Below are positions 3,634 through 61,700 of a stretch of DNA of 64,000 nucleotides, in pieces. Below the pieces are notes generated by a model. That model worked only from the letters and a program-made list of their open reading frames with translations. It was not told the origin of the DNA and searched no databases. A program made the translations under genes and the position numbers. The stretch spans positions 1 to 64,000 of the IMG/VR virus record IMGVR_UViG_3300013902_000010; one strand, 5' to 3'. This DNA is from an uncultured virus (IMG/VR IMGVR_UViG_3300013902_000010) (lineage: Duplodnaviria > Heunggongvirae > Uroviricota > Caudoviricetes). How positions within the stretch are numbered: position 1 is the stretch's first letter; each line of letters opens with the position of its first letter.

Positions 3634-3706
3634 CGAAAATACATCTTATCTTTCGCCCGAATGTATTTTTCCCGTCACATTCCATTGCAGTCTCATTCTT
3701 TTTGCG

Positions 3707-3714
3707 TATCTTTG
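3707..3714 (+). promoter_or_regulatory. -7 promoter box (TATCTTTG) for the lipoprotein gene
   Basis: Matches TAnnTTTG. Confidence 0.65.
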
Positions 3715-3760
3715 CAGCGAAGAAGAAATGAAGATAAAGAAAAATAAAAAACTAAGAATT

Positions 3761-4982: not shown

Positions 4983-4988
4983 AAGCCA

Positions 4989-5243: not shown

Positions 5244-5788
5244 TAAGTCAGGAACACATCAAGGAATCCTGCCACCTCAGCCCAGTACCAAGGATGGATT
5301 TTCACTCTCTTATCACCAATGTACCAAATGCCATCGGCAAACTTGGCAGACTGAACCAGCAAGAGATAGATGAGATATATCGCACCGATGATGAGCGTCA
5401 TCCACCAACATACCGACAGACACCATCCCACGCAGCCAATAGCTGCTACGATAGCACCGCCCTTGTGAATCGGATAGGTGTCCTTATCCACGTAGTTTGG
5501 GGCAATACCCACGAAGCATAGCCCAGCGCAACCAAGGAAGGCGAGACACTGCACGCCTCTGCCGCTATCCAATAAACACACCATCATCAAGCCTCCCACG
5601 AGAATCATGATGCCAGTGAACACCGCACCGTAGTTACATTTCTCCTTTCCGCCTATTACTTCGCTACCTGTGCAACCTTGCAACTGGTAGTAGGTATCAC
5701 TCACCATGTCGGGCACACCGAAGCGCATCGCCGACAAAACCAAATAGCCTCCCAACAGGAGGAATGAAATCATACTCAATAACCACAT
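5228..5788 (-). CDS. Multi-pass membrane protein
   Basis: 186 aa with five to six hydrophobic segments. Confidence 0.7.
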   Translation of the reverse strand: MWLLSMISFLLLGGYLVLSAMRFGVPDMVSDTYYQLQGCTGSEVIGGKEKCNYGAVFTGIMILVGGLMMVCLLDSGRGVQCLAFLGCAGLCFVGIAPNYVDKDTYPIHKGGAIVAAIGCVGWCLSVCWWMTLIIGAIYLIYLLLVQSAKFADGIWYIGDKRVKIHPWYWAEVAGFLDVFLTYWLCV

Positions 5789-5887: not shown

Positions 5888-6622
5888 CTATACATTCATT
5901 TCGAGCTGTGCTGGATAGCCTGCCTTGATGTCGTAGGATTCCACCTCTTCGATGGTCGTCAGCTCGCTCACCTCCTTCTTGTGCTTGGCGGTGACATTAA
6001 AACACTCCAAGGCATACATCTCCAAGGCAGAGAGTAGCTGGATAGCCTTGTCGCATTCCACCGTCAGTTTATTCTCCCCAAGCCACAAATCGGTGGTCTC
6101 ACTGCCCATACTCTTGGCGATGGTCGTGGAGTTCATTAATCCCACACGAGTAGCCTTGTCAAGCCACACCACCATGCCGTTGAGCTTGAATCCGTTCACG
6201 TCGTCGGAGGCATCGTAGGCAATGATGTCTGCGAGTTTCTCCTTCTTGGATTTCTCCAAGGTCTCCTTGCATCGCTCCTGCCATTCCTCGCTCACAAGCC
6301 CATGCTGGCTCTCCCCGAGGTTCATCAGGTAGGCGGCACGCTCCTTGCACTTGTTGCGACATTCCGTGAGCTCGGCATATTCCTCATCGGCATCCATCGC
6401 ACCATTGAGCTTATTCTGCACAATGGCTTCCACGTCGCTTACGGAATACTTGCTTCGCACCAAGGCAGAGACAATGGCGTCGTAATCCCACACGCCAGTC
6501 TCCAAGGTGACGAAATCGTTGCCGCCGCTCTCAACAGCAACCGAGACCTTGTTCCTCCCGAGGTCGTTCTCGATGCGAATGTCCTCGACCTCGCTTGTCT
6601 TCATCTCATTTTCATTTGCCAT
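5888..6622 (-). CDS. DUF4376-like tail-fibre-associated protein
   Basis: YDASDDVNGFKLNG...WLDKATRVGLMNS...LEMYALECFNVTAKHK...YDIKAGYP. The start overlaps the RT stop. Confidence 0.75.
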   Translation of the reverse strand: MANENEMKTSEVEDIRIENDLGRNKVSVAVESGGNDFVTLETGVWDYDAIVSALVRSKYSVSDVEAIVQNKLNGAMDADEEYAELTECRNKCKERAAYLMNLGESQHGLVSEEWQERCKETLEKSKKEKLADIIAYDASDDVNGFKLNGMVVWLDKATRVGLMNSTTIAKSMGSETTDLWLGENKLTVECDKAIQLLSALEMYALECFNVTAKHKKEVSELTTIEEVESYDIKAGYPAQLEMNV

Positions 6623-8036
6623 AATATTCCCTTTCCTTTAAAATGTTATTAATCCTATATTCATTTCTGATTCTGAAATTCTCGTACCTCCCCACTACAT
6701 AGAGGTAATCGAAGAACGGCTTGCACTTCCGCACGGCCCTCCGCCTTATCGCATAGGTATCTCTGCCCACCATGAAACCCATGTAGCTGTTCAGGCTCGA
6801 AAGGTAATGCTCCAAGGCATAGGCATCATCGAGCGTGAACACACGCCGCCTCCCTACCTTGCGAAGAAAACACCCCAAGTCGTGCATGGTGGAATAGAAG
6901 CCACCCACCGTCCTGTTGGCGGTATAGACCCTGTCCATCTTGATGACCGCCCCCACGAAGTACACGCCTTTCCTCACCTCCTGTATGTACTGCTTGTCGT
7001 GGTGCATCTCCATGTTCAGTCTCTCTCGAAGAAAGGCATCCGCACTGTCACGTAGCATCAGCACATCCCCCTTGTGACGGCACACCACGGCGAAGTCATC
7101 CACGAAACGCTCGTACCTTGCGCCAAGAGCCTCGCATAGCCCCATCATGTAGCCGTCAAGAAACGAAAGGTAGAAGTTGGCCAAGAGCTGTGACGTGATG
7201 TTGCCGATGGGCATCCCTCTAAATCGCTCTACGTTGAAGAGAGACTTATGCTTGGGTAGCTTCTCCCACAAGGACAAGTCCCCATGCTTGACGCAGTTGT
7301 CCTGCGGCCTGTGTCTTATCGTCACCGTCAGCAGATACACAAGCGTCTCCAAGTCATCGCCCTTGTAATACTTCCTCACGAAAGCCACGGTGTATCGCTC
7401 CAATATCCGTATGTCGATGCTCATAAAGAACGAGCGTATGTCGAAGCGACCCACCCAAGCCTCCTTTGTATAGTTCTCGCTAAGCTCCATGATGTCACGT
7501 CTCAGAGCCAAGACAGCCTTCTGGGTGCCACGTTTCTTCCTACAGTTCCACGACACATCGCCTTGCGCAACGAATCGCTGCTCAAAAAGCGGCTCTATCC
7601 TCATGGCTATCCAATGCTGTACGATACGGTCACGGAAGGCGGCGGCGAAAATCTCCCTTATCTTGGGAAACCTCACGCAGAAGCAGACGCTCGTACTCGG
7701 GACATACCTGTGTTCCTCGCACTCATATATAAGCTCCATCAAGTCCTCCTCGTGCAAACGATACAAGGTACACTGCTCGCTCGACATCTTGTTGGCAAGG
7801 CAAGCGAAGTAAGCGTTCATCCAACCATCTATTCTTCTGTCATCAAGAGCGGCGACAGGACGAACAAGATTACTATTATACTTGTTGTTGTTGTTGTTGA
7901 CCTGCCCACTGACTGGATTGATATTCCAAGAATTATTAGCGGAATACTCCGAGGCGGCGATGCGCACTAACTTGGTCTTAACAAGCGGTTCCACGCTTGT
8001 GGCGCAACCATTTAATAAAACAGAAGAGTACATCAT
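6612..8036 (-). CDS. DGR reverse transcriptase, with the template repeat in frame in its 5' part
   Basis: REIFAAAFRDRIVQH, FDIRSFFMSI, GMPIGNITSQLLANFYL (DGR-type SQ) and RFVDD catalytic motif. No maturase or endonuclease extension. Confidence 0.95.
   Translation of the reverse strand: MMYSSVLLNGCATSVEPLVKTKLVRIAASEYSANNSWNINPVSGQVNNNNNKYNSNLVRPVAALDDRRIDGWMNAYFACLANKMSSEQCTLYRLHEEDLMELIYECEEHRYVPSTSVCFCVRFPKIREIFAAAFRDRIVQHWIAMRIEPLFEQRFVAQGDVSWNCRKKRGTQKAVLALRRDIMELSENYTKEAWVGRFDIRSFFMSIDIRILERYTVAFVRKYYKGDDLETLVYLLTVTIRHRPQDNCVKHGDLSLWEKLPKHKSLFNVERFRGMPIGNITSQLLANFYLSFLDGYMMGLCEALGARYERFVDDFAVVCRHKGDVLMLRDSADAFLRERLNMEMHHDKQYIQEVRKGVYFVGAVIKMDRVYTANRTVGGFYSTMHDLGCFLRKVGRRRVFTLDDAYALEHYLSSLNSYMGFMVGRDTYAIRRRAVRKCKPFFDYLYVVGRYENFRIRNEYRINNILKEREYYGK
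7849..7957 (-). repeat. DGR template repeat (TR), 109 bp
   Basis: Aligns without gaps to 8719-8827. All 11 mismatches are at TR adenines on the coding strand. Rich in AAC/AAT codons. Confidence 0.97.
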
Positions 8037-20410: not shown

Positions 20411-20668
20411 CTACTTTCCGTTCTCGTCAACCTTTCGCTCCACAAGACCGATGAAGTCGGAAACCAACTTGCAAGACGATGCCTCTTCGGGAGTAATCTT
20501 GATATTAAACATCGTTTCCGTCTGAAGGATCATATCAAGAAAATCAATGGATTCCAACCCGATGTCCTCTCGTAGGTTGGAATTATCATCTACTTCCATA
20601 TCATTCAGTGGAGATTTCAAGCCATCAATAATGGTATGAAGCCGCTTCTTAATTTCTTCTTTTTCCAT
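20411..20668 (-). CDS. acpP: Acyl carrier protein
   Basis: 85 aa, acidic. DIGLESIDFLDMI carries the phosphopantetheine Ser (variant of the DSLD motif), followed by FNIKI. Confidence 0.9.
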   Translation of the reverse strand: MEKEEIKKRLHTIIDGLKSPLNDMEVDDNSNLREDIGLESIDFLDMILQTETMFNIKITPEEASSCKLVSDFIGLVERKVDENGK

Positions 20669-20673
20669 ATTGC

Positions 20674-21897
20674 TTATAATTTATTGTTATCGAATTTGGA
20701 GATAATGAAAGATGAATTGGTACCGCCGAAGCCAAAGGCATTGCAGAGAATGTTGTGCGGTTGATAATTCATTGTCTTCATCACGAGGTTTAGCTTAGGG
20801 AAAGCATTTTTTTCGGTGCCAACGCACCCAGGAAGGGATGCTTTATTCAATATGAGGGCGGCTTGCACGGCTTGCGATACGCCAGCCATCCAGCACTCGT
20901 GTCCGGTCATACCTTTTGTGGCAACCACTTTTGGACACATACCGAAAGTATCGCCAATGGCAGTCGCTTCTGCTTCATCACCCATGGTAGTGCCAGTAGC
21001 ATGGGCGAGAATCACATCTATCAAACCTTCGTCGATACCAGCATCATCCATCGCCTTAATCATGGAAACGGATTCTTGGTAGGCGAGGGGAGTACTGATA
21101 GCTGTGCCATTCGATGAGAAGCCATAGCCCGATAATATCGCCCATGGTTGGAGTTTCTTTGCTCGTAGATGAAAGTTGTGTTCCGGTTCCAATATCACAC
21201 AAGCTGCGCCACCCGAAGGAGCAAGACCTGTGCGTCCTTTCCCGAAAGGCTGCACCTTGGTATCGGTAAAGACACCCAGCGCGTCAAAAGACTGCATGGA
21301 AGCCACGCCATCCTCTTGTGCTCCTACTACTATCACCATTTCCGTTTGCTTGGTATCAAGAAGCATCTTACCTAAGCCCAAGGCATGGCCGCCGCCAGCG
21401 CAAGCCGCACTCACGGTAAGCGACAAGCCATGTATGCCAAGCAAGGATGCAAGGTTCATACTGACCGTAGAATTAAGAGAGCGAAAAACTGCGCCTGCGC
21501 CCAAATAACGAGTATCATTCTTTTGCTGCATAGTAGTGCCCGTGCGCATCATCTCGCCAGCCGTAGAGTCGTTGCTTACGATGAGCGATACATGGTGCTC
21601 GGATAAGAAATCATCCGATATGCAAGCTTGGTGCAAGGCTTGCTTTACTGCGCTAAGTGCATAAAACGTAGGTCGGGAGAAACATTGATATTGCGCTCTT
21701 GTGAGACTCGTTATCAAGTCTTCAGGCACTGATGGTACCGCACCGCACAAATCCGATTGATAGCCCTTTGCCTTTCGCTCGCTATCATGATGTAAGCCGC
21801 ACTTGCCATCGTGCAAGGCTTTGGCGAATGACGGAATATCACTGCCCAGGCAAGAGTGGATGCCCAAGCCAGTGATGTAAATATTTTCTTTGTTCAT
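20674..21897 (-). CDS. Beta-ketoacyl-ACP synthase (FabB/FabF family)
   Basis: IYITGLG N-terminus, catalytic Cys in VSAACAGG, His in AHATGT, His in KGMTGHECWMAG, and C-terminal NAFGFGGTN. Confidence 0.95.
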   Translation of the reverse strand: MNKENIYITGLGIHSCLGSDIPSFAKALHDGKCGLHHDSERKAKGYQSDLCGAVPSVPEDLITSLTRAQYQCFSRPTFYALSAVKQALHQACISDDFLSEHHVSLIVSNDSTAGEMMRTGTTMQQKNDTRYLGAGAVFRSLNSTVSMNLASLLGIHGLSLTVSAACAGGGHALGLGKMLLDTKQTEMVIVVGAQEDGVASMQSFDALGVFTDTKVQPFGKGRTGLAPSGGAACVILEPEHNFHLRAKKLQPWAILSGYGFSSNGTAISTPLAYQESVSMIKAMDDAGIDEGLIDVILAHATGTTMGDEAEATAIGDTFGMCPKVVATKGMTGHECWMAGVSQAVQAALILNKASLPGCVGTEKNAFPKLNLVMKTMNYQPHNILCNAFGFGGTNSSFIISKFDNNKL

Positions 21898-31536: not shown

Positions 31537-32091
31537 TTAGCACTTTATGATAGTGCCTCTATTGGTAACAAGCGAGCCATACTTGATAGCTTCGAGTCTT
31601 CGCAACCAACCATTGATGAATCTTTTTTGCGAAGGATTGTTCTTTACAATGCCCTCATAGAATTGCTTACGGCGAGCCTTCAAGCGATTGAAGAACGTCT
31701 TAGGGTTCTGCCGATTGATAGCCGCAATCGTCTGCTTACCAGGGATGCCATCTGCTTTCAGCCCAAGCATCGACTGGGTGATGGTGATAGATGGCGTTCC
31801 GCTGCACCAAATCCAATCCACAAGTAGGTTGGCAATACTCTGGTTCTTGATTTCGTCCGCACGCCATCGCTTCCAATAACAGCGGCGCATAACTTCGGTG
31901 GCATCGGCATCGGTGATGAGCTTCAAATCATCCACGTCGATGTCGCCGTCGCCATCCTTGTCATAGCCTTGCATACGCCAGGTGGCGATGGTTACGCCTT
32001 TATTGGTCGCACCACCCTTGTCTTTCGGGTCGTTGACGAAACCTCCCTCAAAGGAGAGAATGAATTTTGCGATTGGTTCTATTTTTGCCAT
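31537..32091 (-). CDS. Endolysin, glycoside hydrolase family 108 with a peptidoglycan-binding domain
   Basis: EGGFVNDPKDKGGATNKGVT, ADGIPGKQT and QKRFINGWLRR. Start is taken at MAKIEP, downstream of the promoter. Confidence 0.92.
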   Translation of the reverse strand: MAKIEPIAKFILSFEGGFVNDPKDKGGATNKGVTIATWRMQGYDKDGDGDIDVDDLKLITDADATEVMRRCYWKRWRADEIKNQSIANLLVDWIWCSGTPSITITQSMLGLKADGIPGKQTIAAINRQNPKTFFNRLKARRKQFYEGIVKNNPSQKRFINGWLRRLEAIKYGSLVTNRGTIIKC

Positions 32092-32118: not shown

Positions 32119-32155
32119 CAAAGATAGAAAAAAGGATTTTTTTAGTGGGGACAAA
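32119..32155 (-). promoter_or_regulatory. Late-type promoter TTTGTCCC-N21-TATCTTTG (copy 3)
   Basis: Plus strand caaagata 32119-32126 and gggacaaa 32148-32155. Confidence 0.75.
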
Positions 32156-32252: not shown

Positions 32253-32753
32253 TTACATCTTGGCATGACTACTCATGTAATCCCAAACCTTGGTGCAATC
32301 ATCCTCCGATGGTTGCCAGTCTGCATCATGAAAATAGAAAAGATAAGCCGCCTTGATAATCTCTTCATCGGTCATATCGGCGCAAAGGTCTGCATACATA
32401 GCATTAAATGCTACATACTTATCCCAATCGTTCACTTTTTCGTGGAATTGCATTCCCTTGGTAGCATCCACTATCTCCGATTTCGTCCAATGCGCACCCA
32501 TACCTACAGACTCTCCCTTGCCATTGAGTTTGCTATGTACAAGGCGATTTACATCATGGTTAGCAAACTTCTCGCTGTAATGGCGGTCGTAAAGAATGGC
32601 GTGCTGATTTCTTAATATTTGCCAATACAACTCTGAATGGTCGTTCTCAAGAACCATCAAGTCGCAAGACATTTGTTCGATGGCTGCCCACATTTTCTTT
32701 TCTGAAGTAACGCCATGCAAGCGAGCCTGTTCTATCAACTGAATATATCTCAT
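32253..32753 (-). CDS. Hypothetical protein, gene 5 of the Cys-rich module
   Basis: 166 aa with GAHWT...NDWDKYVAFNAMYAD...FHDADW. Confidence 0.8.
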   Translation of the reverse strand: MRYIQLIEQARLHGVTSEKKMWAAIEQMSCDLMVLENDHSELYWQILRNQHAILYDRHYSEKFANHDVNRLVHSKLNGKGESVGMGAHWTKSEIVDATKGMQFHEKVNDWDKYVAFNAMYADLCADMTDEEIIKAAYLFYFHDADWQPSEDDCTKVWDYMSSHAKM

Positions 32754-32868
32754 GTTTTCTTCTACATTTTATATCACAAAAGTTCAACAATTCGGGCAGA
32801 TGCCCTTGAAATGAGGAATGACAGGTATCAATGTTTGATACTTACCCAAAGGCTGAAAGAAAGAAACT

Positions 32869-33219
32869 TCATCCTGCTTTCTTTCTTTCAACTTTCTTTC
32901 GTTCGTATTTTCTTTCTTGCTCATATTCTTTTTCCCGATTATATATCTTGGAGAACAACCTTTGAAGGATCATCAACAACAAGACAAACCAATTAGACAA
33001 ATAAGCCATGAGGATTGCAAGAGCGATAGCCCAGACTATAGTACAACCCTCGCAAAGCAAAGCTGCAAGCGACAACCAAAACGTAAAACATTGATTACAA
33101 CTTGCAACCTTGCTTAACACCTTAACCAATATCTCGGTTATCGCTTCTGCCAAACCAAGGTGTTGAATAAGGGTAGCCGCCATCATCATAGCGATGGCTA
33201 CAAACAGATACATCATCAT
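32869..33219 (-). CDS. Membrane protein with a CxxC motif (DUF1360-like), gene 4
   Basis: Three hydrophobic segments, SCNQCFTFW and a highly charged C-terminus. Confidence 0.7.
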   Translation of the reverse strand: MMMYLFVAIAMMMAATLIQHLGLAEAITEILVKVLSKVASCNQCFTFWLSLAALLCEGCTIVWAIALAILMAYLSNWFVLLLMILQRLFSKIYNREKEYEQERKYERKKVERKKAG

Positions 33220-33237
33220 CGCAAGGGGAACTTTACG

Positions 33238-33672
33238 TTACGCCGTGGCAATCGTGAGCGTGAGAGGCGCATCGCACACAAAGGTCTTACTGCATGACTG
33301 GCAAGACACTTTTGCGATACCATTCTGTATGCTACCCACCGATGCAGTGATGCCGCTAATAGCGGTTGCGCTAAAGACTGGTATCGTAAAGTCCTGGCTC
33401 ACCACCTGCGAGCGAGTGCAACAAGAGCCACAGCCGCAAGGTACATAACTGATAACTCCCTCTACATGCAACACAACAAGGTATTGCGAGGTTCCAACAT
33501 TGGCAATACTTTTGATGGTAAACTTAGGCGCAAAGACAGGAGTCTCGTCCGCACATGCCGGAACGCAAAGCTGTTGTGTGATATTGATGTCGTAATAAGG
33601 TGCAGTGGTGGAAGAGCCTACTGCAAGCGTGGCTATGATATTAGCCGGAAACGTTCTTTTGTTCATAATCAT
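33238..33672 (-). CDS. Cys-rich beta-strand-rich protein, gene 3
   Basis: 144 aa with CVPAC, CGCGSCC, CQSC and VC. Confidence 0.8.
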   Translation of the reverse strand: MIMNKRTFPANIIATLAVGSSTTAPYYDINITQQLCVPACADETPVFAPKFTIKSIANVGTSQYLVVLHVEGVISYVPCGCGSCCTRSQVVSQDFTIPVFSATAISGITASVGSIQNGIAKVSCQSCSKTFVCDAPLTLTIATA

Positions 33673-33704
33673 TTCTGTTTAAGTCGCCGAAAAGCTTTTC
33701 GATA

Positions 33705-34127
33705 TTAATGTTTTACTTGATAGCCCTGATTACTCTCTACTGGTAGATTCTTCTGAAGAAGGTCTGCGAGTTCATCGAGATCTTCTTCCTCGAAAGTAAC
33801 CAACCCCTCCAATACCGACAGTGGACCCTTGTAGCGAAGACTGTTCACTACATCATGAGCCATCTGCGGAATACTCTCTTCTGGAATGTTACCAAAATAC
33901 TTGGTAAGCATCGGGGTAACGAGTGCATTCACTACAGGTTGAATCATAGGTTCCATATCTGCTTGTAGGGAATAGCTTCCACTCACAAGCCCCATGCCAC
34001 CGATGGTAGCTTGCAGAGATTGCAACATAGGAAGGCGCATCAGATTGCCAGCGGCTATCTGAGAAATGGCAGGGCGTGCCCATTCGGACACGACCGCTGC
34101 CAAAATTTGGGAGTTCTTGTATTCCAT
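33705..34127 (-). CDS. Hypothetical helical protein, gene 2
   Basis: 140-aa ORF tightly spaced within the operon. Confidence 0.8.
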   Translation of the reverse strand: MEYKNSQILAAVVSEWARPAISQIAAGNLMRLPMLQSLQATIGGMGLVSGSYSLQADMEPMIQPVVNALVTPMLTKYFGNIPEESIPQMAHDVVNSLRYKGPLSVLEGLVTFEEEDLDELADLLQKNLPVESNQGYQVKH

Positions 34128-34139
34128 ATCGCCTAAGCT

Positions 34140-34658
34140 TTACTGATTACAAGCACATCCACATCCGCAACCCGTCTGGCAAACATTGCCCGACGGAATC
34201 ATCAACTTGGTAACACTGGTGAGTGCTGCCACCTGCGATTTAAGCACGTCGATGTTGGCATTGGCAGCGGCATTGTATGCCATCTGCTGTGCATTTACGG
34301 CTTGCTGTGCATCCTTGTTGGCATCCACTTTGTTCTCAAGCTGACGTACCTTGCCATCCAAATACTGAGTAACCTCCACCAATTTCTTATCGGTGTAGTT
34401 CTCGCTCTTCTGGATAGCAAGCTCTGTCTTGAGAGTAGAGTTTTCCTGAATAAGGTTCGTCTCGCTCTTAGTGACGAAACGAGCATCAGGGTCGGTAGGG
34501 TTGGCAGTCATACCATTGTTTCCTCGCCCAAGATTAAAAAGCGAGGCACCGCCGCCCAGCAAACTAGTAGCCAAACCAGCGATACCGAGGCCAAGGGCTG
34601 TGTTGCCCAATCCCTTGCTGGCAACATCGTAGTTACCATCATTCGTTTTTACCTGCAT
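34140..34658 (-). CDS. Glycine-zipper / coiled-coil protein with a Cys-Gly tail, gene 1
   Basis: GLGNTALGLGIAGLATSLLGGG, a long coiled coil, and C-terminal CQTGCGCGCAC. Confidence 0.85.
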   Translation of the reverse strand: MQVKTNDGNYDVASKGLGNTALGLGIAGLATSLLGGGASLFNLGRGNNGMTANPTDPDARFVTKSETNLIQENSTLKTELAIQKSENYTDKKLVEVTQYLDGKVRQLENKVDANKDAQQAVNAQQMAYNAAANANIDVLKSQVAALTSVTKLMIPSGNVCQTGCGCGCACNQ

Positions 34659-34699
34659 AACTTCATTGTATTAAATTCTTCCAATATCGGAATCGTATG

Positions 34700-34844
34700 C
34701 AAAGGTAAAGCGAAACAGGTAAACAGAAATGTGGTTTCCATTAAATGTCGTTGCAACAAAATTATAAGGAAGAAACGCTTATCTTATGATTATAATTTTT
34801 GATAACTCATCTTATATAATTATCAAAATTGATAACTCATCTTA
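34700..34844 (-). promoter_or_regulatory. Promoter (TACCTTTG) and candidate LysR operators of the Cys-rich operon
   Basis: -7 box at 34700-34707. ATTA-N7-TGAT boxes at 34789-34803 and 34819-34833. 16-bp direct repeat TTGATAACTCATCTTA at 34799 and 34829. Confidence 0.6.
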
Positions 34845-35747
34845 CATCGTCTCTTCCAAAGCGGCGATATAAGGTATTGCTTCTTCCTTGATAATGTCAA
34901 GGAAAAGTTGCGCAGAACGTTTCATCGGAACATCTTGCATATAATGTACGTTACTCACAAAACCTTGCTCAAGGCTTATGATAGGTCGAGCTACGAGGGT
35001 AGGGTGGTTCTTTAGATATAGCTTAGGCGCAAAGGTTATCCAATGCGTTTCCTCTACGGCTGCAAGGGCTTCATCAGGGTCACTTACGATACATCTTGCA
35101 TTTAGTTTGGTGAGGTCTCGCTGGATATAGCGTTGGCAAGTCTCAAACTCTCGCTCTCCGACATCTGGCATGACAACAGGATGTTTCAAAAGGTCTTCGT
35201 ATGCTAATTTATCCTTGTTGGCCAAAGGATGAGTATTACGCATGATAGTATAGATATGAAAAGGGATGCATGGCTTAGACTCAATGCCCTCATGCTTGTA
35301 GGCAGTATTCATCGTGAACGCAAGGTCGATGTTATGTGATCGAAGCGAACGGTTCAGAATATGTGCCTTATTGAAATCCGCATTGATAAGGACGTTAGGG
35401 TATCGCTCCATGAAAGTAAGTGCAGCTACACGTATATAAGGAGCGATAAAAGAACCAACCCCAATACGCAATTCGCCTGTGATGCAGTTGTTGATGGCAT
35501 GAATATGTTCCTTGCAGTCTTCCGTCTGCTTCAGTATCTCCTTGGCGCGAGGTAGCAAAGCCTCTCCGCTTTCGGTTAGCATGATGTCATGCGAGGTACG
35601 TATCAATAATTTGCAACCTAACTCATCTTCCAAAGCCTTGATATGTTGGCTAACTGCCGATTGGGTGACACAACAATAGGATGCAGCTACGCTAAACGAA
35701 AGCGTATCTGCCACATAAACAAACGAGCGCAAATGTCTTAGTTCCAT
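34842..35747 (-). CDS. LysR-family transcriptional regulator
   Basis: MELRHLRSFVYVADTLSFSVAA...TQSAVSQHIKALEDELGCKLLIR...LTESG, followed by a substrate-binding domain. 301 aa. Confidence 0.97.
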   Translation of the reverse strand: MELRHLRSFVYVADTLSFSVAASYCCVTQSAVSQHIKALEDELGCKLLIRTSHDIMLTESGEALLPRAKEILKQTEDCKEHIHAINNCITGELRIGVGSFIAPYIRVAALTFMERYPNVLINADFNKAHILNRSLRSHNIDLAFTMNTAYKHEGIESKPCIPFHIYTIMRNTHPLANKDKLAYEDLLKHPVVMPDVGEREFETCQRYIQRDLTKLNARCIVSDPDEALAAVEETHWITFAPKLYLKNHPTLVARPIISLEQGFVSNVHYMQDVPMKRSAQLFLDIIKEEAIPYIAALEETM

Positions 35748-35794
35748 ACTCTCTTACTTTTTAGTCTAAATGATAAATCAAATTTATATGACTG

Positions 35795-35849
35795 CAAAAG
35801 TAAATAAAATATTTCGTAAAACATTTGCGCTTGTATTAAAAATGCTAAT
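35795..35849 (-). promoter_or_regulatory. lysR promoter (TACTTTTG) with an ATTA-N7-TAAT box
   Basis: -7 box at 35795-35802 and a T-N11-A dyad at 35835-35849. Confidence 0.55.
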
Positions 35850-37946: not shown

Positions 37947-38116
37947 AACTCAATCAATATCTTAGGGTGCTGCCCACCCCCCCCACATGTATGACAAGCG
38001 GGAGCGATGCCATCGGGCGAATATACCCGACGGTCGCTATCAAACCGCTTGTCGAAGGGAGGTATGTCTAAGCTACCCACCACGATGATATGAATGTTGT
38101 TGTTATTCGGTCGCAT
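37943..38116 (-). CDS. 57-aa ORF resembling a variable-region module of phage C5 DNA methyltransferases
   Basis: RRVYSPDGIAPACHTCGGGGQHPKILIEL. Confidence 0.6.
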   Translation of the reverse strand: MRPNNNNIHIIVVGSLDIPPFDKRFDSDRRVYSPDGIAPACHTCGGGGQHPKILIEL

Positions 38117-38960
38117 CCTCGCTACCTTTATTTTCAAAATCCTCTTCTCTTTCCTCATCCCAAACAAGTTTCTTGACAAGGAAAGAAATACCATCGCCAA
38201 ATTCTTTTTCCTCATAGCCAAGATGTAGATACCAACGAAGCACCCATTCTTCTGCCTCCTTGCGGTTCCATTCCAAGGCTACAGTCTTACAACCACTCTC
38301 CTTGGCCTCTCGTTCGGCGGTTTCCAATAACCTCATGGCGATGTTCTTCTTTCTGTAGTCTCCATCCACCCAAAGGGCATAGATGAAAGCATCGCACTTC
38401 TTCCAGAAATCATTACTCTTTCGCTCTTCCTCATTAGGAATATCAAGATGGACGTTTCCTACCACCACATCATCGACAATGGCACAGGATAAATGGCGTG
38501 TCACTCCAAGCCATTTCTGAACGTTGGTCGTGATAGAGAATGCAAAGGTTGTAAGGCGAACCTGCACACCTCTATGAGCTGGATTATTGCCATCGTTGTT
38601 GGCATTATTACATCCTCCATCATTGCCATTTCCTCCGTTTTCGGAAGAGTGATTATCATCTTCTCCGTTTTTGGAAGAATGATTGTCGCCGTCTTCCTTT
38701 CCGAGGTCAGCCAAACGCCAGGCGATAATCTTTCGCTTGCGCCAAGCCATCAAAGGGATAAATACCCAGCATACGATGATGCTGCTCAATACTACATACC
38801 ACATAGCCGATATGCAGCATTCGTACACTTCATTAGAGAACGTTGACGGATGTAGGACTCTGAACGCAGAATCCATTATCAACCGCATGGTGATTGCTAC
38901 CAATAATGCGAGAATAACAGGCACTAACGAAATGCCCAGCTCTTTGAAAAATGTCTTCAT
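38103..38960 (-). CDS. GNAT-family acetyltransferase with an N-terminal membrane anchor
   Basis: FIYALWVDGDYRKKNIAMRLLETAE...WYLHLGY, two hydrophobic N-terminal segments and a G/N/D linker. Confidence 0.8.
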   Translation of the reverse strand: MKTFFKELGISLVPVILALLVAITMRLIMDSAFRVLHPSTFSNEVYECCISAMWYVVLSSIIVCWVFIPLMAWRKRKIIAWRLADLGKEDGDNHSSKNGEDDNHSSENGGNGNDGGCNNANNDGNNPAHRGVQVRLTTFAFSITTNVQKWLGVTRHLSCAIVDDVVVGNVHLDIPNEEERKSNDFWKKCDAFIYALWVDGDYRKKNIAMRLLETAEREAKESGCKTVALEWNRKEAEEWVLRWYLHLGYEEKEFGDGISFLVKKLVWDEEREEDFENKGSEDATE

Positions 38961-46695: not shown

Positions 46696-48375
46696 TTACT
46701 CCTCACCACGCTTGTAACGCTCGAATGCTTCCTTACGTTCCTTGTTGGTCTTGTAAGGAGATGGGTCGAACTCACGGAGAGTCTGAACCTTTGCACCCTC
46801 GCCATTGTTCTCAGGAGCCGCACCTGCATCAGGTGCCTCACCTGCATCCTCGCCGAGAGCCTTGATCTGTGCATCCTTGTCGGCGATGGTCTGCTCGGCG
46901 GTGGCGAGTGCATCCTTTGCACCCTTCAACTCCTCGTCAGCCTTAGCCTTGTCGGAAGTAAGATTTTTGATTTCCTCGTCCTTCTTGGCGATAGTCTCGT
47001 CTTTTTTGGCGAGGGCATCAGAATGCTCGGTGTTGAGATTTTCGATTGCCTTAGCGTGAGCCTGGTTTGCATCGGCGAGTGCTTTTTCAGCCACCGTCTG
47101 TGCATTCTTAGCTTCTGCTATCTGCGCGTTGGCTGCATCGAGTTTAGCCTGCAAGTCGGCAAGACTCTGCTCTGCCTGGGTAGCCTTCTGCTGTGCATCG
47201 ACTACCTGCTGCTTGGTTGTGTTAAGATGTGCTTCGAGCGTATCGAGAAGAGGGGCATTCATAAATGCGCCATCCTCCTTAACTGCCAAATCACCATCTT
47301 TCAGACACAAGGCAGCACTGATAAGTGGATAGTTTGCCATATTGATATTGAGTTTAGAATTGTTGTTATCCTGTTTTCGAGAAGAAGCCTTGTTAGGGTC
47401 TTCGGCTGGGTCGCTACTTGGCTCGTCTTCCGGCTCATCGGGAGCCTCACGGCTGATAGGTTCTGCCTTACCATCGTAGATGTCGAAGCAACGATGTACG
47501 CAAGAGAAGAAATCACTCTGGTCGTCCATCAAGATACCCTTTACCTTTTCTGCATCGAATATCTTTCCGTGTAGATGCTCATCCTTGGCGTTAGGGCAAG
47601 CCGCTTTAACGTCGGCTCTAAATTCCACGCCCAACTCGGCAAGTTCTTTTACGAGTGCCTTGGTGTTGCCATCGTTGGCTATATCACGGAACTCACGGTT
47701 CTTGTCGAAACTCTCAGGGTCGTACAACTCGTGGTAGGTCTCATCCGTAAACTGGTTTTTGCTACCATCTGCCTGGGTGTAGAATGCTGCCATCACACCG
47801 ATGCAACCGATTTCGTCTTTCGGGTGCATGTAGTATCGCTCGTCGCAAAGAGAAGCGAGGTACATACCTGCGCTGGCACACATGCCATCTACGAAGGCGA
47901 TAACTGGCTGACCCAAGGAACGGGCATACTCGATGGCTTGCTGATAATCGTTCTTAGCCCAAGCCGAACCACCAGGCGTATTGATGATAAAGATGTGACC
48001 TCGACAGAGCGGATGATTGGCCGCACGGATCATCATGTCTCGATGGTCGATGCTGCCATACGAGCAACCACCGCCATTGCGAGTGATAGGACCATCCACG
48101 GTGAGCACGCTCACGAATGGGAACGTCTGAAGGTCGTCCTCATCCAAAGCCCAGTTGCCACGTACCAGCTTGCCATCCTCGGAAATCTGATATTCCTCCG
48201 GATAAATCATCGCACCATCAGGAAGTGTCTCCTTGACGAAACCACAAGTCCTTTCGGGCTTCTCGAATACCGCATGGGTATTCAGGTTCTGCTCCAAGGC
48301 TTTCTTGATGCCATGCACAAAGGTTGGCGATACCATCCACTTCTTTTCGGTAAGGATTTCTAAAAGTCCTTTCAT
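46696..48375 (-). CDS. S49 family prohead protease fused to a coiled-coil scaffold
   Basis: INTPGG, GMCASAGMYLASLCD and IGCIGVM, plus an Ala/Lys/Glu coiled-coil C-terminal third. Confidence 0.9.
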   Translation of the reverse strand: MKGLLEILTEKKWMVSPTFVHGIKKALEQNLNTHAVFEKPERTCGFVKETLPDGAMIYPEEYQISEDGKLVRGNWALDEDDLQTFPFVSVLTVDGPITRNGGGCSYGSIDHRDMMIRAANHPLCRGHIFIINTPGGSAWAKNDYQQAIEYARSLGQPVIAFVDGMCASAGMYLASLCDERYYMHPKDEIGCIGVMAAFYTQADGSKNQFTDETYHELYDPESFDKNREFRDIANDGNTKALVKELAELGVEFRADVKAACPNAKDEHLHGKIFDAEKVKGILMDDQSDFFSCVHRCFDIYDGKAEPISREAPDEPEDEPSSDPAEDPNKASSRKQDNNNSKLNINMANYPLISAALCLKDGDLAVKEDGAFMNAPLLDTLEAHLNTTKQQVVDAQQKATQAEQSLADLQAKLDAANAQIAEAKNAQTVAEKALADANQAHAKAIENLNTEHSDALAKKDETIAKKDEEIKNLTSDKAKADEELKGAKDALATAEQTIADKDAQIKALGEDAGEAPDAGAAPENNGEGAKVQTLREFDPSPYKTNKERKEAFERYKRGEE

Positions 48376-48467
48376 GTGGAGAATCAAAAGTTTAATATTA
48401 ATGTATGTTTGCTGTTATCCTTGAAAACAATTCTTTTTACCTAAGAATGTTTCGCTTTTTCTGTGGG

Positions 48468-55725: not shown

Positions 55726-58700
55726 TTATGATTTGCCCTTCATAAACTGATTGGCTTTCGTCATGCTATCATAGAGGTTGCCTCGTCCGTACATATCAAT
55801 CTTTGCGCTGATAGGTTGCGACAATCGCTCCAGGAGCGCATTGACGGCTTGCAGGAGGGCTGCATTGCTCGCCGCACTGCTGGCTAATAGGTCGCCAGCC
55901 GCTGACGCGTCAGGCGAAAGATTACCATTGCTTGCTTGCAAGCTTGCTGCAAGGGTATCGGCTACGTTGCCATTATCAAATGCCCTGCGTGCTGAGTTTC
56001 TCCCTGAATAGTTGCTGTCATAGTTGACGAGATCCTTCAACAGTTGAGGATCGTTCATCATCATGGCATGGGTGGTTTCTCGACCAATCACGATTTCGGG
56101 ACCCTTCTCTGCTACCAGGGATGGCTGTCCGTTGATGGTGGTGGCTGTAGGTTGCGACAACATCTGCACCCCACCCTGCTTAGGCGCATCGTCTTCTTTG
56201 GCCCAATATACCTCGCCGTTATCGGCGACGAAAGGCTTCAAGTCTTGAACGTTACCAGAATCATAGGTGAGCATACCTGTTACCAGCTTGGTGTTGGTGC
56301 TGCTCGTAGAAGACTTCTTCTTGCTACCGAATGCGGAGTTAAGTGCCCACTGCATCAAGCCAGTGAGGGTGCTCATTACTACTGCTGCGGCGATAGGACC
56401 AGCGATAGGGCCTAAGAACTGGAAACACTTACCGATGGCACCAGCAATAGAGAAAGTCATCTGTGTCTCTGCAAGGTCGGCATCGGCTTGCGCTTGCTCC
56501 TGGTTGCCTTGCTGCTTCAAGACGAACGTTTGGTTCATCAAGGCATCGGTGCCTTTGAGCATCGCCTGGTTAGCGATTTGAGACCCCTTGGTTTGCTCAT
56601 TGTTGCCATCTTCGGTAGTCTGAACAATGTCCTTCATACCCTTGGATGTCTCCTTAGAGCGATCCTTTGCGCCTTTCTTTACCTCCTTGGTGAGTTCTTG
56701 CTGGTGTTTCTTCTCTTTCTTGAGCTGCTTCTTCTGCTCTGTATCGGTATCGGTACCATCCTTGCCTTTCTTGCCGCCTCCGGTATTGAAGCCCATGTTC
56801 ATCACACCACCGATGATACTGCCACCGATGCCAGCTACGGCATCGGATAGGCTACCTCCTCCCGTGGCTGCATCGGCGATAGCTGTGCCCGTGGCATTCG
56901 CTGCACCAGTAAAGGCACCAGCGTTGTTAGATGGAGATGAATTGTTAGAAGGCTTCTTGCTTGGTGTATCAATACCAAAAGCTTCTTTATTGTAATCCTT
57001 AATAGTACCATCTGGGTTGCGCTTCTTCCACGCTCTCGGTGGCTCGCCATCTGCCAAGGAATTGCCATTCATATCTACGTATTCATTACCTACCAGGCGC
57101 ACCCACATTGGATTATCAGCGGTACCCAGATTGCGCCAGTCAGCATTGATGTAAGTATTTGCATTGGCCTCTGCATCCGCACGAGCCGCATCAATAGTAG
57201 GCTGCGCATTTTTCTTGCCTCGCTTGGCACCAGCATCATTGATGGCTTTCCACATCTGTGTGTTCACATCATTGAGAGCCATGTTGCCCCAACTCTCCAA
57301 CATGGATTTGAGGGCATTCTTGATAGCCTCTTGTGCGCCGCTCACGTCATTACGCATCTCGGCAAAAGCAGAGCCTACGGCTGCGCCAAAGTCCTTGATA
57401 GGTTGTACGAGTTCCTTCATCTGTGAGAGACGATTTTTCATCGAAGCAGCTACTTGGTTAGCATAGTTTAATTCCGCTTCCATACGAGACTTGTCTGCGT
57501 CTTGCAACAGACGTTTGTCTTTGGATGTCTTCTCGATAAAGGCATAGTAATCCTCGGCTGCTTGCAAGCGAAGTCTCATTAATTCTACCTCTGGGTCGGC
57601 GGTTAAGTCTGCGAGACCCAAGTTAGAAAGGAAATTTGTACGCTTTCCAAAGAGATTGATTTCGTTCTGCATTTTGCGAAGCTTCTCTTGGTTGGCAAGA
57701 TTCCGCTTGTTGGTAGCCCACATCTGGTCGGAAATCTTCTTCTGCTGGTCGTAGGTCTTCTTCTGAGCCTCCGTGTATTCATCCGAATATTGAATAAGCT
57801 TGTGATAGAAAACCTGCCAATCAGCCGCATTATCGCCCAAAACGCTCTGTATGCGAAGAGCCATGCCATCAGGATCATTACCAAAGAGCATCTGCATCAA
57901 CAAGTTTTGCCCTGCCTTGTTTGACACATCTACCTGGTATAGCTTGACGATTTCCTGGCGAGCCTTTTCGTACATGGCAATGATGTTAGACTTGCGCTTG
58001 TCGAAAGCCTTTTTGTCGATGGCTTCGGCGTTCGTAGGGTTGGCATACCCCATAGTGTTGAAATCGTCATACATATTTTGCTTGACAGCACCCATGTAAT
58101 CATTTTCCTGTGCTACCTTACGACGGGTTTCCAACTGCTGCGCTTCCAGCTTGATACGATTTTGCTCGTTCTGCGTCGCCTTGGCGAATATCTCGGCGGT
58201 GATAGAACCCATGGAGCGATTCAATCCCTTGCCGAGAGTTTCCATCTTTGCACGCAAAGCATCTACATTGTTGGCTGTGATACCATTCAAGAGATTCTTG
58301 GATAGATTGATACCTGTAGCATCTGTTTTTTCCACCAAGTCTTTATCCATCGTCTTCTTGAATTTCTCCCAAACATTCTTCTGTCCTGCGATAGCAAGAC
58401 GTACTTGAGTAAGAGCCTCTTCCATTCGCTTCTTGACAGGCTCGACGAATAAGTCTTGCTCGGTTTTATCCATACCAATAGAGACGGCATCGGCAAGCTT
58501 AGCATTAATTTGCCGCTCATAAAAGTTGCGCACATCATCCATGATAGCTTTCGCCTCGTCCTGCTTCTGCTTCAGTTCCTCACGCATAGACTTCAGACGC
58601 TCACGCTCCTCTTGCTTCTGCGCACGGATAGCGTCCTTGTCTGGAGCATCGTTTTCGAGAGTACCAGGCTCATCCTCTACCCAAGGAGTGTAGCCATCAA

Positions 58701-61700
58701 GATTAACAACTTGATTGAAGTAATCGTTGATTTCCTTATCCTTTGCAGTCTCACGCTTAGTTGCATTCTGATAGTGGATAAGTGAGGATAATAACTCCAA
58801 CTTACCACTGCCGGCTTTAACCGTTATTCGTTGCCCTCCGATCTGATGGTTTTTATCGTTGGTTATGTAAGAATAAACACCATTCTTCGTATTGAAGCGA
58901 AAACTCCCTTCTTTTGCACCGGTCTCCCCTGCCTCTATAATCTTTTGCCATATCCAACCTGCACCTGCACCCCTATTGAACATATCCATAACGTTCTTTT
59001 GGGTAAAGCCTCCAGCGAATAATCCTAGAGAATTGAGAGCTTTTTTTATGCGATTAGCCGCATTCAGACGATCCATCTGATAAGATGGCATTACGTTTTG
59101 TTTCGCCTCCTCCCGAAGTCGGTAATACGTAGCCCTCTGAATTTCCTGCGCTAACTCTGAATAGTGCTTCTTTAAGTCGCTCACGTTCTTAATTTCAATA
59201 CCAAGCTTAGAGATATACTGACGGAAATCTCGATTAAAGCGAGCTATTTGCGTATTACGCTCTGCTTGTGATACATTAAGGGCTTCGAGCGTGACCTTAT
59301 AAGAATGTAATTTTCGAGTAAGAGTATCTGTTTGAGACTGTGCTTCCTTCAACTTATCCTTCCAAGCATTAGCTTTTTGACGTGCTTCTTCCTCTGCTTT
59401 CGCGGCTTCTTCTGTTGCAGTTACGTAAGACCATATTGCACCAGCAACAGTCAAAACGATACTTGCGATTGCGCCAAAGATATTAGCTTTCATTGCAGTA
59501 TTAAGAGCACGTTGGGCTGTTACAGCCTCCGATATACCTTTCGCTAAACTCCCGAAGAAAGTCAACAAAGACCAGAGACCACGAGATACCGCAAAATTAA
59601 CGATAGCAGGAAGTAGTCCTACAAATATCTTAGCAGACACTATCAGAGTTTGTAATGCAGCATTCAATGTTCCCTTAAATAATGGACTCTGTGTCATCCA
59701 TGAGGACATTTCATACCAAGCTTCAGCTAACGACTTTACATTATTAACTCCTTCCGGATTCACAAATGCCTTTTCCCAAAGGTTGTTCGCTCTATCCAAG
59801 ATACCAGCCGCACTTTCCTGCTGCATCTTATACTCATTGGTTACGGCGGATGCTTCCTCGAATGCCTCCTTTGACTCATAAAGGTGGTCTTTCAGTACAT
59901 CTACGTTTTTCGACATCGTAACCATGGCGGTTACAAGTCGCTGACCGTCGGAGCCAAGGTCTTTAAAGATGCTACCCAGGGCATTCATATTACCCTTGTC
60001 GCGCATTTTTTCGAGTACCATCACGATAGCATCCATCGCATTGCCCGCTGCATACATCTGCTTGATGGTGCCCTGCTGAATACCCAAATCTTTTTCGATA
60101 AGGTTATGGTTCTTTTGCAAGGCTACAATAAATTTAGACATAGCAGTGGCACTTACTTCCGGCATCAAGAAAAGGGAGTCGGATGCAGAACCAAGGGCAA
60201 GCAACTGGTCTGTAGTAATACCTGCGGTACGAGATACACCCGTCAGTCGTTTGGCAAATTCTACGATATTGCCAGATGTGGCTGTAGATGTAGAGGACAG
60301 CTTGAACATGGCAGATCCAGTAGCAAGCATTGCCTTTTCGATACCCATCTTTGGAATGAGTCCCATCGTCTCCACCATCTTAGACAGTGCAGGCAAAGCT
60401 TCTTCGCCCATTTCCTCGCCAATGGCTACATTGATTTGGTCGGCTGCTGCCACAAACTGCTTCATACCAACTATGCCATACTTTCCCATACCAAGTTTCG
60501 CACCTTGGTAAGCAAGCTGGGCGAGTCCATCGACGGATGTACGAGTATCTATCTTAGCCAACTCGTTAGAGAGCTTGTTTACATCCTGCATCGTGAGTCC
60601 GGACACCTTACGAATATCGGTCAGAGAAGAAGAATAATCAAAATTCTTCTTGATGGCTGCGGTAACAGTGTCTTTTATTTTGTTGAATACGGAGAATAGA
60701 CCTACATACGCCGTAAGGTTCTTCGCTGCTGTTTGCCATGCACCGCCTTGCTTATTCGCCGCACCAGTAACATTATCAATCTCCTTTTTAAGTTCTTTGA
60801 GAGCCTTTTGCTTATCCTTAAAATCCTTATCGCCAGTCTCGATTTTGTTTAATTCGACTTGTAACTGCTGATAGGCTTTTTTAAGTTCGTCAATAGAGGC
60901 TTTTTTGTTTTTACTTCGGGCGATAACATCGTTTACATCAACTACATCATCCTCCACCTGCTTGATTTCTTTATCCAGGGCTTGAAGCTGCTGCTTTACT
61001 TGCTTGGCTCCATCAGAAGACGGGGCAAGTTTGCCAAGTTGCTTATTAAGTTCTGCGGATGCAGCTTTTAGATCATCGAGGGATGCGGTCTTCATATTGT
61101 CCAAAATCTCGTTGAGCTTCTGGGTGCTCATGGTAGCCTGTTCAGTGTTACCCTTTAAAGCTTTCAGTCGCTCATCAATCAAGCCAAGAGCTTCTTGTAT
61201 CTCTTTAATTTTTGAAGTATCGGCTATAGGAGTAACATCGAGTTGTTTTTGGAGATAGTTACGAGACCATTCCAAATCTTGCTTGGTTACATCATGAGGT
61301 GGTGCTTGCTCACCGAAATCTATCGTATTATTTCGGGCGATGATTTGCGCATTATTGTATGTATGGGCATAGCGCGTATTGGCCTGTACTTCCGCAGTAC
61401 GTGCCTTTACTGTTTCTATTTCATCTGCTACACGTTTCCATTCTTCAGTATAGGGCGCAAGGGATGCCTTCATTTTCTCCAGCCAAGAAAGCATCTCTTT
61501 TAAACTCTGTTCTGACTGTGCGTTTATATCCAACAAGCGTTCACTGACATCGCCACGAGTCAAGCCACTTTGAGCTTCCTTCACTTTGCCCGTCAAAGAC
61601 GCTAATCTACGCTCTGCATCTTCAATGTCTTGAGCGTATCTTTTCCATTCCTCACCGCCAACGTTTACTTGGGATTGTAGCAAACGGAGTGTGTTGATAG

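Follow-up and report, generated by a model that had tools for sequence, protein, structure and literature searches.

The stretch of DNA analysed here (the window, 64,000 nucleotides) comprises the opening 64 kb of an IMG/VR virus record, IMGVR_UViG_3300013902_000010, which is 97,567 bp long and is rated 98% complete. Its minus strand carries an intact gene for a LysR-type transcriptional regulator (LTTR), followed by a cassette of small co-oriented genes that we call g1, g2, g3, g4, g4b and g5 (Table 1). An earlier note on this sequence had described the cassette as a five-gene operon. All five of those genes were found on the minus strand where the note had placed them, and the sixth, g4b, had been missed.

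Table 1. Genes and sequence features of the LysR-linked cassette and its borders, in window positions (aa, amino acids; TM, transmembrane; ORF, open reading frame).
Feature	Positions	Strand	Remarks
Two overlapping candidate -7 boxes of LysR	35779-35802	minus	TACTTTTG at 35802, TAAATTTG at 35786
LysR-type transcriptional regulator	34842-35747	minus	301 aa, 8 Cys; Pfam HTH_1 + LysR_substrate
Direct repeat AAGATGAGTTATCAA, two copies	34799-34843	minus	34843-34829 and 34813-34799; after LysR stop
Conserved upstream block	34729-34792	minus	-85 to -22 from g1 -7 box; candidate regulator-binding region
g1 -7 box	34700-34707	minus	TACCTTTG at 34707; invariant in 10/10 aligned loci
5' stem/palindrome	34679-34692	minus	TTCCGATATTGGAA, directly after g1 -7 box
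g1	34140-34658	minus	172 aa; ends ...VCQTGCGCGCACNQ; glycine zipper, coiled coil, Cys tail
g2	33705-34127	minus	140 aa, acidic, soluble, no family
g3	33238-33672	minus	144 aa; CVPAC / CGCGSCC / CQSC; beta-sandwich model
g4	32869-33219	minus	116 aa; CNQCFTFW; 3-TM, charged C-terminus; optional component
g4b	32784-32924	minus	46-codon ORF, overlaps g4 3' end; Lys-rich N-terminus; ends ...IPHFKGICPNC
g5	32253-32753	minus	166 aa, acidic, mostly helical; Pfam DUF7841 (PF25223)
Terminator-like 14-bp stem-loop	32162-32200	minus	closes cassette, directly before late promoter
Late-type promoter of next operon	32119-32155	minus	TTTGTCCC-N21-TATCTTTG; outside cassette, marks its boundary
Lysin (GH108 + PG_binding_3 muramidase)	31537-32091	minus	PHROG endolysin E 3.7e-38; first gene of downstream late operon

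The regulator has the composition of an LTTR, with an HTH_1 domain (PF00126, E 2.7e-20, residues 3-62) and a LysR_substrate domain (PF03466, E 8.4e-26, residues 90-289) in a protein of about 300 amino acids. None of the NCBIfam equivalog models matched it at cut-off, the best giving 122 bits against a required 250, so it falls into no named subfamily; the OxyR model gave 75 bits against a cut-off of 329. Many LTTRs sense redox state or metabolites, and the DNA site contacted by an LTTR lies at about -80 to -20 relative to the promoter under its control.

A scan of viral contigs with g1 gave 155 relatives, and the best 80 of the 155 formed our locus set. Promoters were recognised by the Bacteroidetes-type -7 box, TAnnTTTG, and were counted, together with the late-promoter motif described below, in 78 related loci. 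In 77 of the 78 loci such a box stands no more than 120 nt ahead of LysR, and the intact gene with eight cysteines and its own promoter, as the earlier note had it, was verified. The -7 box of g1 was found in all 78 loci, which, with the hairpin and late promoter after g5, bore out the claim of a separately promoted operon. The g1 promoter was analysed further in 65 unique promoter regions from 149 loci. It has no -33 TTTG element in these regions, and positions conserved at fixed distance from the box extend through the -85 to -22 block. A weak promoter with a long conserved upstream block beside an LTTR gene fits activator-dependent transcription, in line with the signal-induced, separately promoted operon proposed in the note, and we infer that LysR may bind in this block.

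The stem directly after the g1 box was tested for covariation in the 10 loci picked for alignment A3. All 50 of 50 cells of its 5 bp were paired, with compensatory double changes in two of the five pairs, against 28-58% pairing in slid controls, and four pairing variants were seen across the promoter regions. The independent covariation events are few, since the sequences fall into few lineages. TTCCGATATTGGAA may be an RNA hairpin or a DNA operator, the two being indistinguishable from the letters. In the direct repeat after the LysR stop, the first AAGATGAGTTATCAA copy forms the palindrome TTATCAATTTTGATAA (34835-34820), a TTATCAA palindrome. Only the window and its closest relatives, L065 and L072, have the repeat, which is therefore lineage-specific.

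At the downstream end, a perfect stem of at least 9 bp was present within 140 nt after g5 in 47 of the 78 loci, and a bulged homologous hairpin in four of five clade-B loci aligned. The late-promoter motif of this phage is TTTGTCCC-N21-TAnnTTTG. It has seven copies in the 97.6-kb genome (positions 3559, 19120, 32155, 48504, 64790, 64801 on the plus strand, and 95075), and every TTTGTCCC belongs to one of them. Two copies stand divergent, back to back, near 64.8 kb, and copies precede the head protease gene, a gene for a 1115-aa protein and the tail-operon region. The motif was found within 300 nt after g5 in 44 of the 78 loci, namely the lysin-bearing ones, and in none of the 78 inside the LysR-g5 stretch or up to 300 nt upstream of LysR; the operon does lack the late motif, as had been claimed. 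In five aligned loci of the lysin-less clade, a GC-rich hairpin and a promoter variant, TGTCC-N21-TAnnTTTG, stand between g5 and the downstream gene p363. The true start of the window lysin is ATG 32091. The listed TTG start at 32214 is too long, because the lysin's own late promoter (32155-32119) lies between g5 and this ATG. We had also considered that the g1 promoter drives a 15-kb operon, which is ruled out by this late promoter inside the over-long, TTG-started lysin frame.

Co-occurrence was counted in 77 loci with at least 2.5 kb upstream and at least 4.5 kb downstream of g1, three of the 80 having been dropped for short flanks. LysR, g1, g2, g3, g5 and p363 were each present in all 77. 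The expectation that the genes of the note travel together therefore held for g1, g2, g3 and g5, with LysR; g4 was present in 34 of the 77. A GH108 lysin occupied the position equivalent to that in the window in 44 loci. The order LysR>g1>g2>g3>g5>lysin>p363 was seen in 43 loci and LysR>g1>g2>g3>g4>g5>p363 in 33, so that g4 (with g4b) and the lysin were nearly mutually exclusive (33 with g4 only, 43 with lysin only, one with both). The single locus with both is a near-identical twin of the window, and the window thus has the rare arrangement. Median identity to the window was highest for g1 (93%) and g2 (90%), followed by g3 (78%), LysR (76%), g5 (74%), lysin (64%), p363 (58%) and g4 (52%).

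LysR remains adjacent to the cassette even where the genes are rearranged, as in L053, where it lies downstream of g5. In L067, a 49.8-kb relative whose proteins are 46-57% identical to those of the window, LysR is upstream, and a gene for an extracytoplasmic function (ECF)-type sigma factor (L067:4452-5003, Sigma70_r2 + r4_2) is inserted between LysR and g1. This sigma factor gene apparently shares a transcript with the module and with the genes for an Amidase_3 lysin and a u-spanin-like protein. In L068 and L069, tblastn found neither LysR nor g2.

Conserved cysteine pairs are present in four of the products: the g1 tail, g3, g4 (CxQC) and g4b (CPxC). The motifs of g1, g3 and g4 are kept down to 40% identity. 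The gene for the glycine-zipper and coiled-coil protein g1 and its CG-rich cysteine end were both verified. Its C-terminal tail has the form Cx3CxCxC, in which C160, C164, C166 and C168 are invariant and the number of CG repeats varies. The glycine zipper stays below the Kyte-Doolittle TM threshold (1.6 over 19 residues), which leaves g4 as the only clear membrane protein of the cassette. A word-based search gave 201 homologues of g1; identity was 79% or more for all of the 120 listed, a few of which bear a name, in each case 'hypothetical protein'. No family in Pfam, PHROGs or NCBIfam matched g1. As the i-spanin of a two-component spanin it does not fit either, with a hydrophobic segment below threshold and no lipobox protein in the cassette. 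In a PDB sequence search its coiled coil weakly resembled the stalk of a trimeric adhesin (YadA, E 0.056); PDB sequence searches with the g1 and g5 profiles and with the proteins p363 and p607 gave nothing significant. When g1 and g3 were searched by tblastn against 50,697 deposited phage records, no match was found, and blastn of the region against deposited phage records gave two matches, each of 3% coverage. For g2 we found no family match and no informative Atlas neighbour.

For g3, the cysteine motifs quoted in the note are present and the AlphaFold2 model, built from 41 sequences, is an all-beta sandwich (pLDDT 93.6, pTM 0.85), in keeping with the beta-rich protein that it described. All six cysteines, in the pairs C36/C40, C81/C84 and C124/C127, were invariant in alignment A2, which has nine sequences, and only C36, C40 and C124 stayed nearly invariant in the broader alignment A4 with its 41 sequences. 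Judged by strand order, the three pairs would lie in loops and at the ends of strands, all at the same pole of the sandwich. The hydrophobic N-terminal stretch is a strand of the predicted fold and not a signal peptide. The family is small: in an exhaustive profile search of 1.84 billion proteins, just 68 representative clusters came up. Apparent compositional matches to T/S/V-rich repeats, namely two giant proteins with 16 and 10 'g3-like' stretches, were rejected. The g3 fold had no match at E <= 0.001 in Foldseek searches of PDB and BFVD, and the best Z of a wide VIA-align search was 5.6, to generic CS/HSP20-type sandwiches that constitute background. A complex prediction with g1 (residues 55-172), g2 and g3 scored 0.02, which speaks neither for nor against binding.

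The membrane protein with CNQCFTFW that the note had read in g4 was confirmed, with hydrophobic segments at residues 1-24, 44-62 and 47-86 and the C-terminal sequence KEYEQERKYERKKVERKK. Its CxxC is invariant and mostly CxQC. Being small, with TM segments and a charged hydrophilic C-terminus, g4 fits the generic description of a holin. It matched no holin family in Pfam or PHROGs, the sole weak match being Phage_Gp23 (E 0.003, below cut-off), and the suggested DUF1360 gave no Pfam match at E <= 0.1. The g4b frame ends in G[IVL]CPxC in 37 of 40 g4-bearing loci, the three without it being L067, L153 and L028.

The product of g5 matched DUF7841 with 27.3 bits, just above the gathering cut-off of 25.2; its relatives reach far higher values, such as 129 bits for gp58 of crAssphage. 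The predicted fold of g5 is confident (pLDDT 94.0, pTM 0.85), and its invariant or nearly invariant residues include H51, H58, H88, W89, D111, D143 and D145. Foldseek gave no match to the fold, and the best VIA hit had a Z of 4.7, which is background. A Ulp1/YopJ-type CE-clan protein was considered on this hit and rejected, there being no conserved catalytic cysteine. We found no longer fused forms of DUF7841, which is weak evidence. None of the eight proteins scanned matched PADLOC-DB. In PHROGs, Pfam and PADLOC, g1-g5 matched no virion, replication or known defence family, as the note had supposed.

The cassette is related to genes of other phages. Relatives of g5 were found in nine deposited phage records. 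Ahead of the DUF7841 gene, Bacteroides phage BF1-TP2, the crAss-like phage ctbg_1 and prototype crAssphage each encode a protein of g1 architecture: a glycine zipper (ASKGxG...GLGIxG), a coiled coil, and a ...VLPxxPTVTG tail followed by cysteines. Such g1-like proteins occur in 26 records, several of them annotated 'putative tail protein'. The N-terminus of g1 aligned to the profile of gp61-like proteins with 92.9% probability (E 3.7e-7) over 45 glycine-rich columns, and a distant homology between g1 and the crAssphage gp61-like proteins is probable. By BLASTP, crAssphage gp61-gp60-gp59-gp58 corresponds gene for gene to BF1-TP2 gp40-gp39-gp37-gp36, and g5 matched BF1-TP2 gp36 (E 1e-21) and crAssphage gp58 (E 6e-5). 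crAssphage adds a small 3-TM protein, gp57. Two resemblances noticed by eye failed: hhalign detected no similarity between g2 and crAssphage gp59, and BLASTP did not support one between p363 and the 323-aa protein of L248.

The versions in crAssphage and BF1-TP2 have neither LysR nor g3, and the module is also without LysR in L153, L154, L247 and L248. LysR is therefore not a necessary partner, contrary to the link assumed in the earlier note. In L153, L154 and L247 the module again has its own -7 box and flanking intrinsic terminators. These comparisons suggest that the window cassette is a regulated form, particular to one lineage, of a more widespread Bacteroidales-phage module, which would consist of a g1-like protein, small soluble proteins, DUF7841 and, in some cases, a small 3-TM protein. 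Prototype crAssphage (Carjivirus communis) gp61-gp57 and BF1-TP2 gp40-gp36, both uncharacterised, follow the same module logic; they differ from the window in carrying a coiled-coil protein (gp60/gp39) that the window lacks. In the phage crAss001 no DUF7841 was found and the module is absent, and its lysis-annotated genes Gp27-Gp30 are unrelated to g1-g5. A literature search found no paper on DUF7841, crAssphage gp61 or BF1-TP2. We also observed that small HExxH ('zincin-like') proteins follow the DUF7841 and 3-TM genes in crAssphage (gp56, L238:8613-8954) and in L247 (9849-10295), whose modules are unrelated versions; the window version has none.

The genes around the module were then compared. 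The labels 'u-spanin-like' and 'holin-like' were given by eye from lipobox and TM features, no family having matched. The module adjoins muralytic enzymes of four families, though not in every locus. In the window and clade A the enzyme is GH108, and in L067 it is Amidase_3, after which comes a u-spanin-like gene. L247 has Phage_lysozyme immediately upstream of the module, together with a holin-like and a u-spanin-like gene, and L248 has Peptidase_M15_3 immediately downstream of it, accompanied by a 2-TM protein and by a u-spanin-like gene. In addition, the window has a second and more conventional lysis-like cassette at 4548-5788 (minus), which encodes a 186-aa multi-TM protein, an 84-aa 2-TM protein and a DUF5675 enzyme. 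This enzyme belongs to the family of crAss001 Gp30, annotated as an L,D-carboxypeptidase, and among five relatives only G409 has a homologue. Beside it on the opposite strand (3593-4279, plus) lies a 228-aa ORF with a lipoprotein-like signal (…LSACSKDDES) and no family match. GNAT acetyltransferases recur nearby, at 38103-38960 in the window (285 aa, hydrophobic N-terminus) and at L247:5260-5646; the L247 gene is part of the lysis cassette and is flanked there by the holin-like and lysozyme genes.

We tentatively favour the reading that the window carries a self-contained, LysR-gated, moron-like cassette whose products act on the end of infection, in lysis control or egress. LysR, sensing a small molecule, would bind the upstream block and turn the cassette on. 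The products would assemble at the cytoplasmic face of the inner membrane as a metal- or thiol-dependent complex and tune whether, or when, the cell envelope is breached, most likely in lysis control or egress; no protective coat would be built. The reading is directed to lysis because lysis genes recur nearby and g4 is holin-like.

Several results weigh against it. No lysin adjoins the module in 33 of the 77 loci; in the complete genome G407 the GH108 gene is about 10 kb distant, G409 has only a distant DUF5675 enzyme, the amidase of L153 is 7 kb from the module, and no annotated lysin is near the module of crAssphage. Since g4 and the GH108 lysin are nearly mutually exclusive, g4 is not the dedicated holin of that lysin. 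The module is dispensable for basic lysis, because seemingly complete sets of holin-like, endolysin and u-spanin-like genes exist beside it in L247 and L248, and the second lysis-like cassette of the window likewise points to its dispensability. The conservation of g1, with a median far above that of the lysin, is unusual for lysis proteins, and no holin, spanin or antiholin family in Pfam, PHROGs or NCBIfam was matched. The simplest form of the idea, that the cassette is just a lysis cassette, was rejected on the lysin's own late promoter, the near exclusivity of g4 and lysin, and the complete lysis sets elsewhere.

A serious competitor, although we consider it somewhat unlikely, is that the cassette is a classic moron acting on the host and not on lysis, for example in superinfection exclusion or as a new membrane anti-phage system, expressed independently of the late genes and cued by LysR in this clade. 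Its autonomous promoter and terminator suit this well, as do the membrane protein, the optional g4/g4b pair (34 of 77 loci) and the spread over unrelated phages (crAss-like, tape-measure-bearing and ~100-kb ones). The small, integrase-bearing phage L153 has the module inserted with the tail tube gene on one side and the tape measure gene on the other; in L154 the module comes before the tape measure gene. Exclusion and defence genes typically evolve fast, however, unlike the strongly conserved g1 and g2, and neither the PADLOC scan nor the integrase scan (88 phage proteins, no match) gave anything that such a role would lead one to expect. Expression from a prophage is not the main mode, because DUF7841 was found in just two of 401 sampled Bacteroidales genomes. 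The place before the tape measure gene in L153 and L154 can also be read as that of virion-associated proteins, serving ejection and envelope penetration or acting as tail accessory and assembly factors, with g1 as a coiled-coil fibre with a metal-binding cysteine tip and GH108 as a virion lysin. This is unlikely. The gp61-like proteins of crAssphage do stand among tail genes, the window module precedes a long late operon that includes a Phage_tail_C domain protein, the g1 coiled coil has its weak likeness to the YadA stalk, and the holin-like and DUF5675 cassette elsewhere in the window could be the true lysis cassette. But no structural family in PHROGs or Pfam was matched, the promoter motif of the structural operons was in none of the 78 cassettes, which have a regulator of their own, and the cassette includes a 3-TM protein. 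The same module also occurs in phages of unrelated tail architectures, and the 'tail protein' label of crAssphage is an annotation and not a measurement. crAss001, which reportedly has a published virion proteome and cryo-EM structure, does not have the module.

The cysteines themselves suggest two further explanations. In one, which we regard as distinctly unlikely, the proteins with cysteine pairs (g1 tail, g3, g4, g4b) and the His/Asp-rich g5 form an auxiliary module that binds or relays metals or thiols and, during infection, adjusts the redox or metal state of the host, with LysR as a redox or metabolite sensor. The cysteine pairs invariant in four products, the predicted position of those of g3 at one pole, the conserved His, Asp and Trp of g5, and the redox or metabolite sensing of many LTTRs all agree with it; no metal-binding or thiol-oxidoreductase family was matched, LysR scored far under the OxyR cut-off, and the crAssphage and BF1-TP2 versions exist without g3 and most of the cysteine motifs. 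The other is the proposal of the earlier note, a signal-induced, membrane-anchored shell, cross-linked by disulfides or metals and reminiscent of spore coats, that would act as a shield against oxygen or metals for an anaerobic lysogen or for its progeny. We consider this very improbable. The cysteine-rich proteins, the LysR regulator and the separate promoter on which it was built are real, some distant g3 homologues begin with cysteine-rich N-termini, and an Atlas search with g3 gave a match to a SipL/SPOCS cluster (score 0.93). That match was only at rank 25, however. Pfam SipL (PF12673) matched one of 41 g3-family members at E 0.067 and not the window g3, and no spore-coat or appendage structure was among the fold matches listed, so that the analogy to spore coats was not sustained. 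Nor did g4 match DUF1360 in Pfam. An exported, cross-linked shell is not supported by the g3 N-terminus, which is a strand of the fold. Lacking a signal peptide, g3 remains cytoplasmic, and disulfide cross-links are unlikely in the reducing interior of an anaerobe. The lysogen, too, gained no support from the integrase scan. Spore-coat and endospore-appendage proteins (SipL with SPOCS, PF12673; Ena with DUF3992) resemble g3 in being small, beta-rich and rich in conserved cysteines; they differ in that g3 has no significant family match, no fold match among those listed and no export signal, and in that the host group is non-sporulating.

Among known systems, the nearest analogy in logic to the LysR-gated cassette appears to be the CidR-controlled, holin-like cidABC/lrgAB operons of Firmicutes, in which an LTTR stands beside genes for small membrane and soluble proteins that are switched by a metabolic signal and affect cell lysis. 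In the window, too, LysR lies beside an operon of small proteins, and its residues 1-193 matched the CidR model NF047520 with 98 bits. With a cut-off of 415 for CidR, this score is far too low, and none of g1-g5 belongs to a family of CidA/B/C or LrgA/B, so that the cassette cannot be counted among these operons. The window genes are, moreover, co-oriented and phage-borne, and their effect on lysis is putative. Phage morons such as lambda bor/lom and HK97 gp15 are autonomous inserts of promoter, gene and terminator between late genes. At the level of sequence, the window cassette has this anatomy: it has its own promoter and a closing hairpin, lies between late operons (the head genes and the lysin/p363 operon), has optional content and is absent from some relatives. 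It differs in comprising six genes and a dedicated regulator instead of one or two genes, in occurring mainly in phages without integrase, and in being kept as a multi-gene block across phage families. The lysis-inhibition set of phage T4 comprises the holin T with its periplasmic domain, the antiholin RI and the cytoplasmic RIII. The likeness to this system is one of concept, small membrane and soluble proteins near lysis genes and a lysis time adjusted by a signal. There is no relation of sequence or fold, and in the window the signal would act via transcription, through LysR, and not via protein-protein sensing.

The virus itself, a large tailed phage of the gut, encodes a tape measure protein at 55726-62646, a head protease at 46696-48387 and, at 6612-8036, a reverse transcriptase; 90 of 120 crude ORF calls are on the minus strand. 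It also encodes a ketoacyl synthase with an acyl carrier protein, GNAT, ThyX, MazG, a radical SAM protein, PAPS reductase, a C5 methylase, DnaN and a Rep3-like initiator. Contigs of metagenome-assembled genomes hold six related stretches; the titles name Prevotella for four of them and Bacteroidales for two. The host belongs to Bacteroidales and is probably Prevotella, an assignment that is tentative because those contigs may be binned phage contigs.

Some genes far from the cassette were also recorded. The reverse transcriptase (PF00078; PHROG E 7e-54) adjoins a DUF4376 protein, downstream of a 1975-aa protein, and the region 5888-8036 (minus) may be a diversity-generating retroelement. The beta-ketoacyl synthase (407 aa) and the acyl carrier protein (PP-binding, 85 aa) lie amid presumed late structural genes at 20411-21897 (minus). 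The Rep3-like initiator domain (genome 95203-96381, equal to L156:15203-16381) and a protein with a Cro/C1-type helix-turn-helix (window 325-696) make a plasmid-like or carrier lifestyle of the phage conceivable.

Little is known of how gut Bacteroidales phages, among them crAssphage, control lysis, or of their accessory functions. As a kind of thing, a regulated phage accessory cassette is already known; the underlying module stands a real chance of being a new system. It is a compact multi-gene block that occurs across unrelated phage families, and two of its proteins have confident folds that lack known relatives. In one abundant clade it comes with a dedicated ligand-sensing regulator and a defined promoter, which offers a tractable handle, and a cultured phage, BF1-TP2 (host Bacteroides fragilis), carries a LysR-less version. 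It is possible, though we put it forward with reserve, that the g1-like/DUF7841 module represents an unrecognised, widespread envelope-acting system of gut Bacteroidales phages including crAssphage, with at least two unknown folds and cysteine-metal chemistry, which in the ~100-kb Prevotella-phage clade has been coupled by LysR to a host metabolite or redox cue. If so, a virulent-looking phage would sense the physiology of its host and conditionally change lysis timing or the entry of competitors. If the gating by LysR holds, a phage that does not look temperate would read a host signal to alter the outcome of infection.

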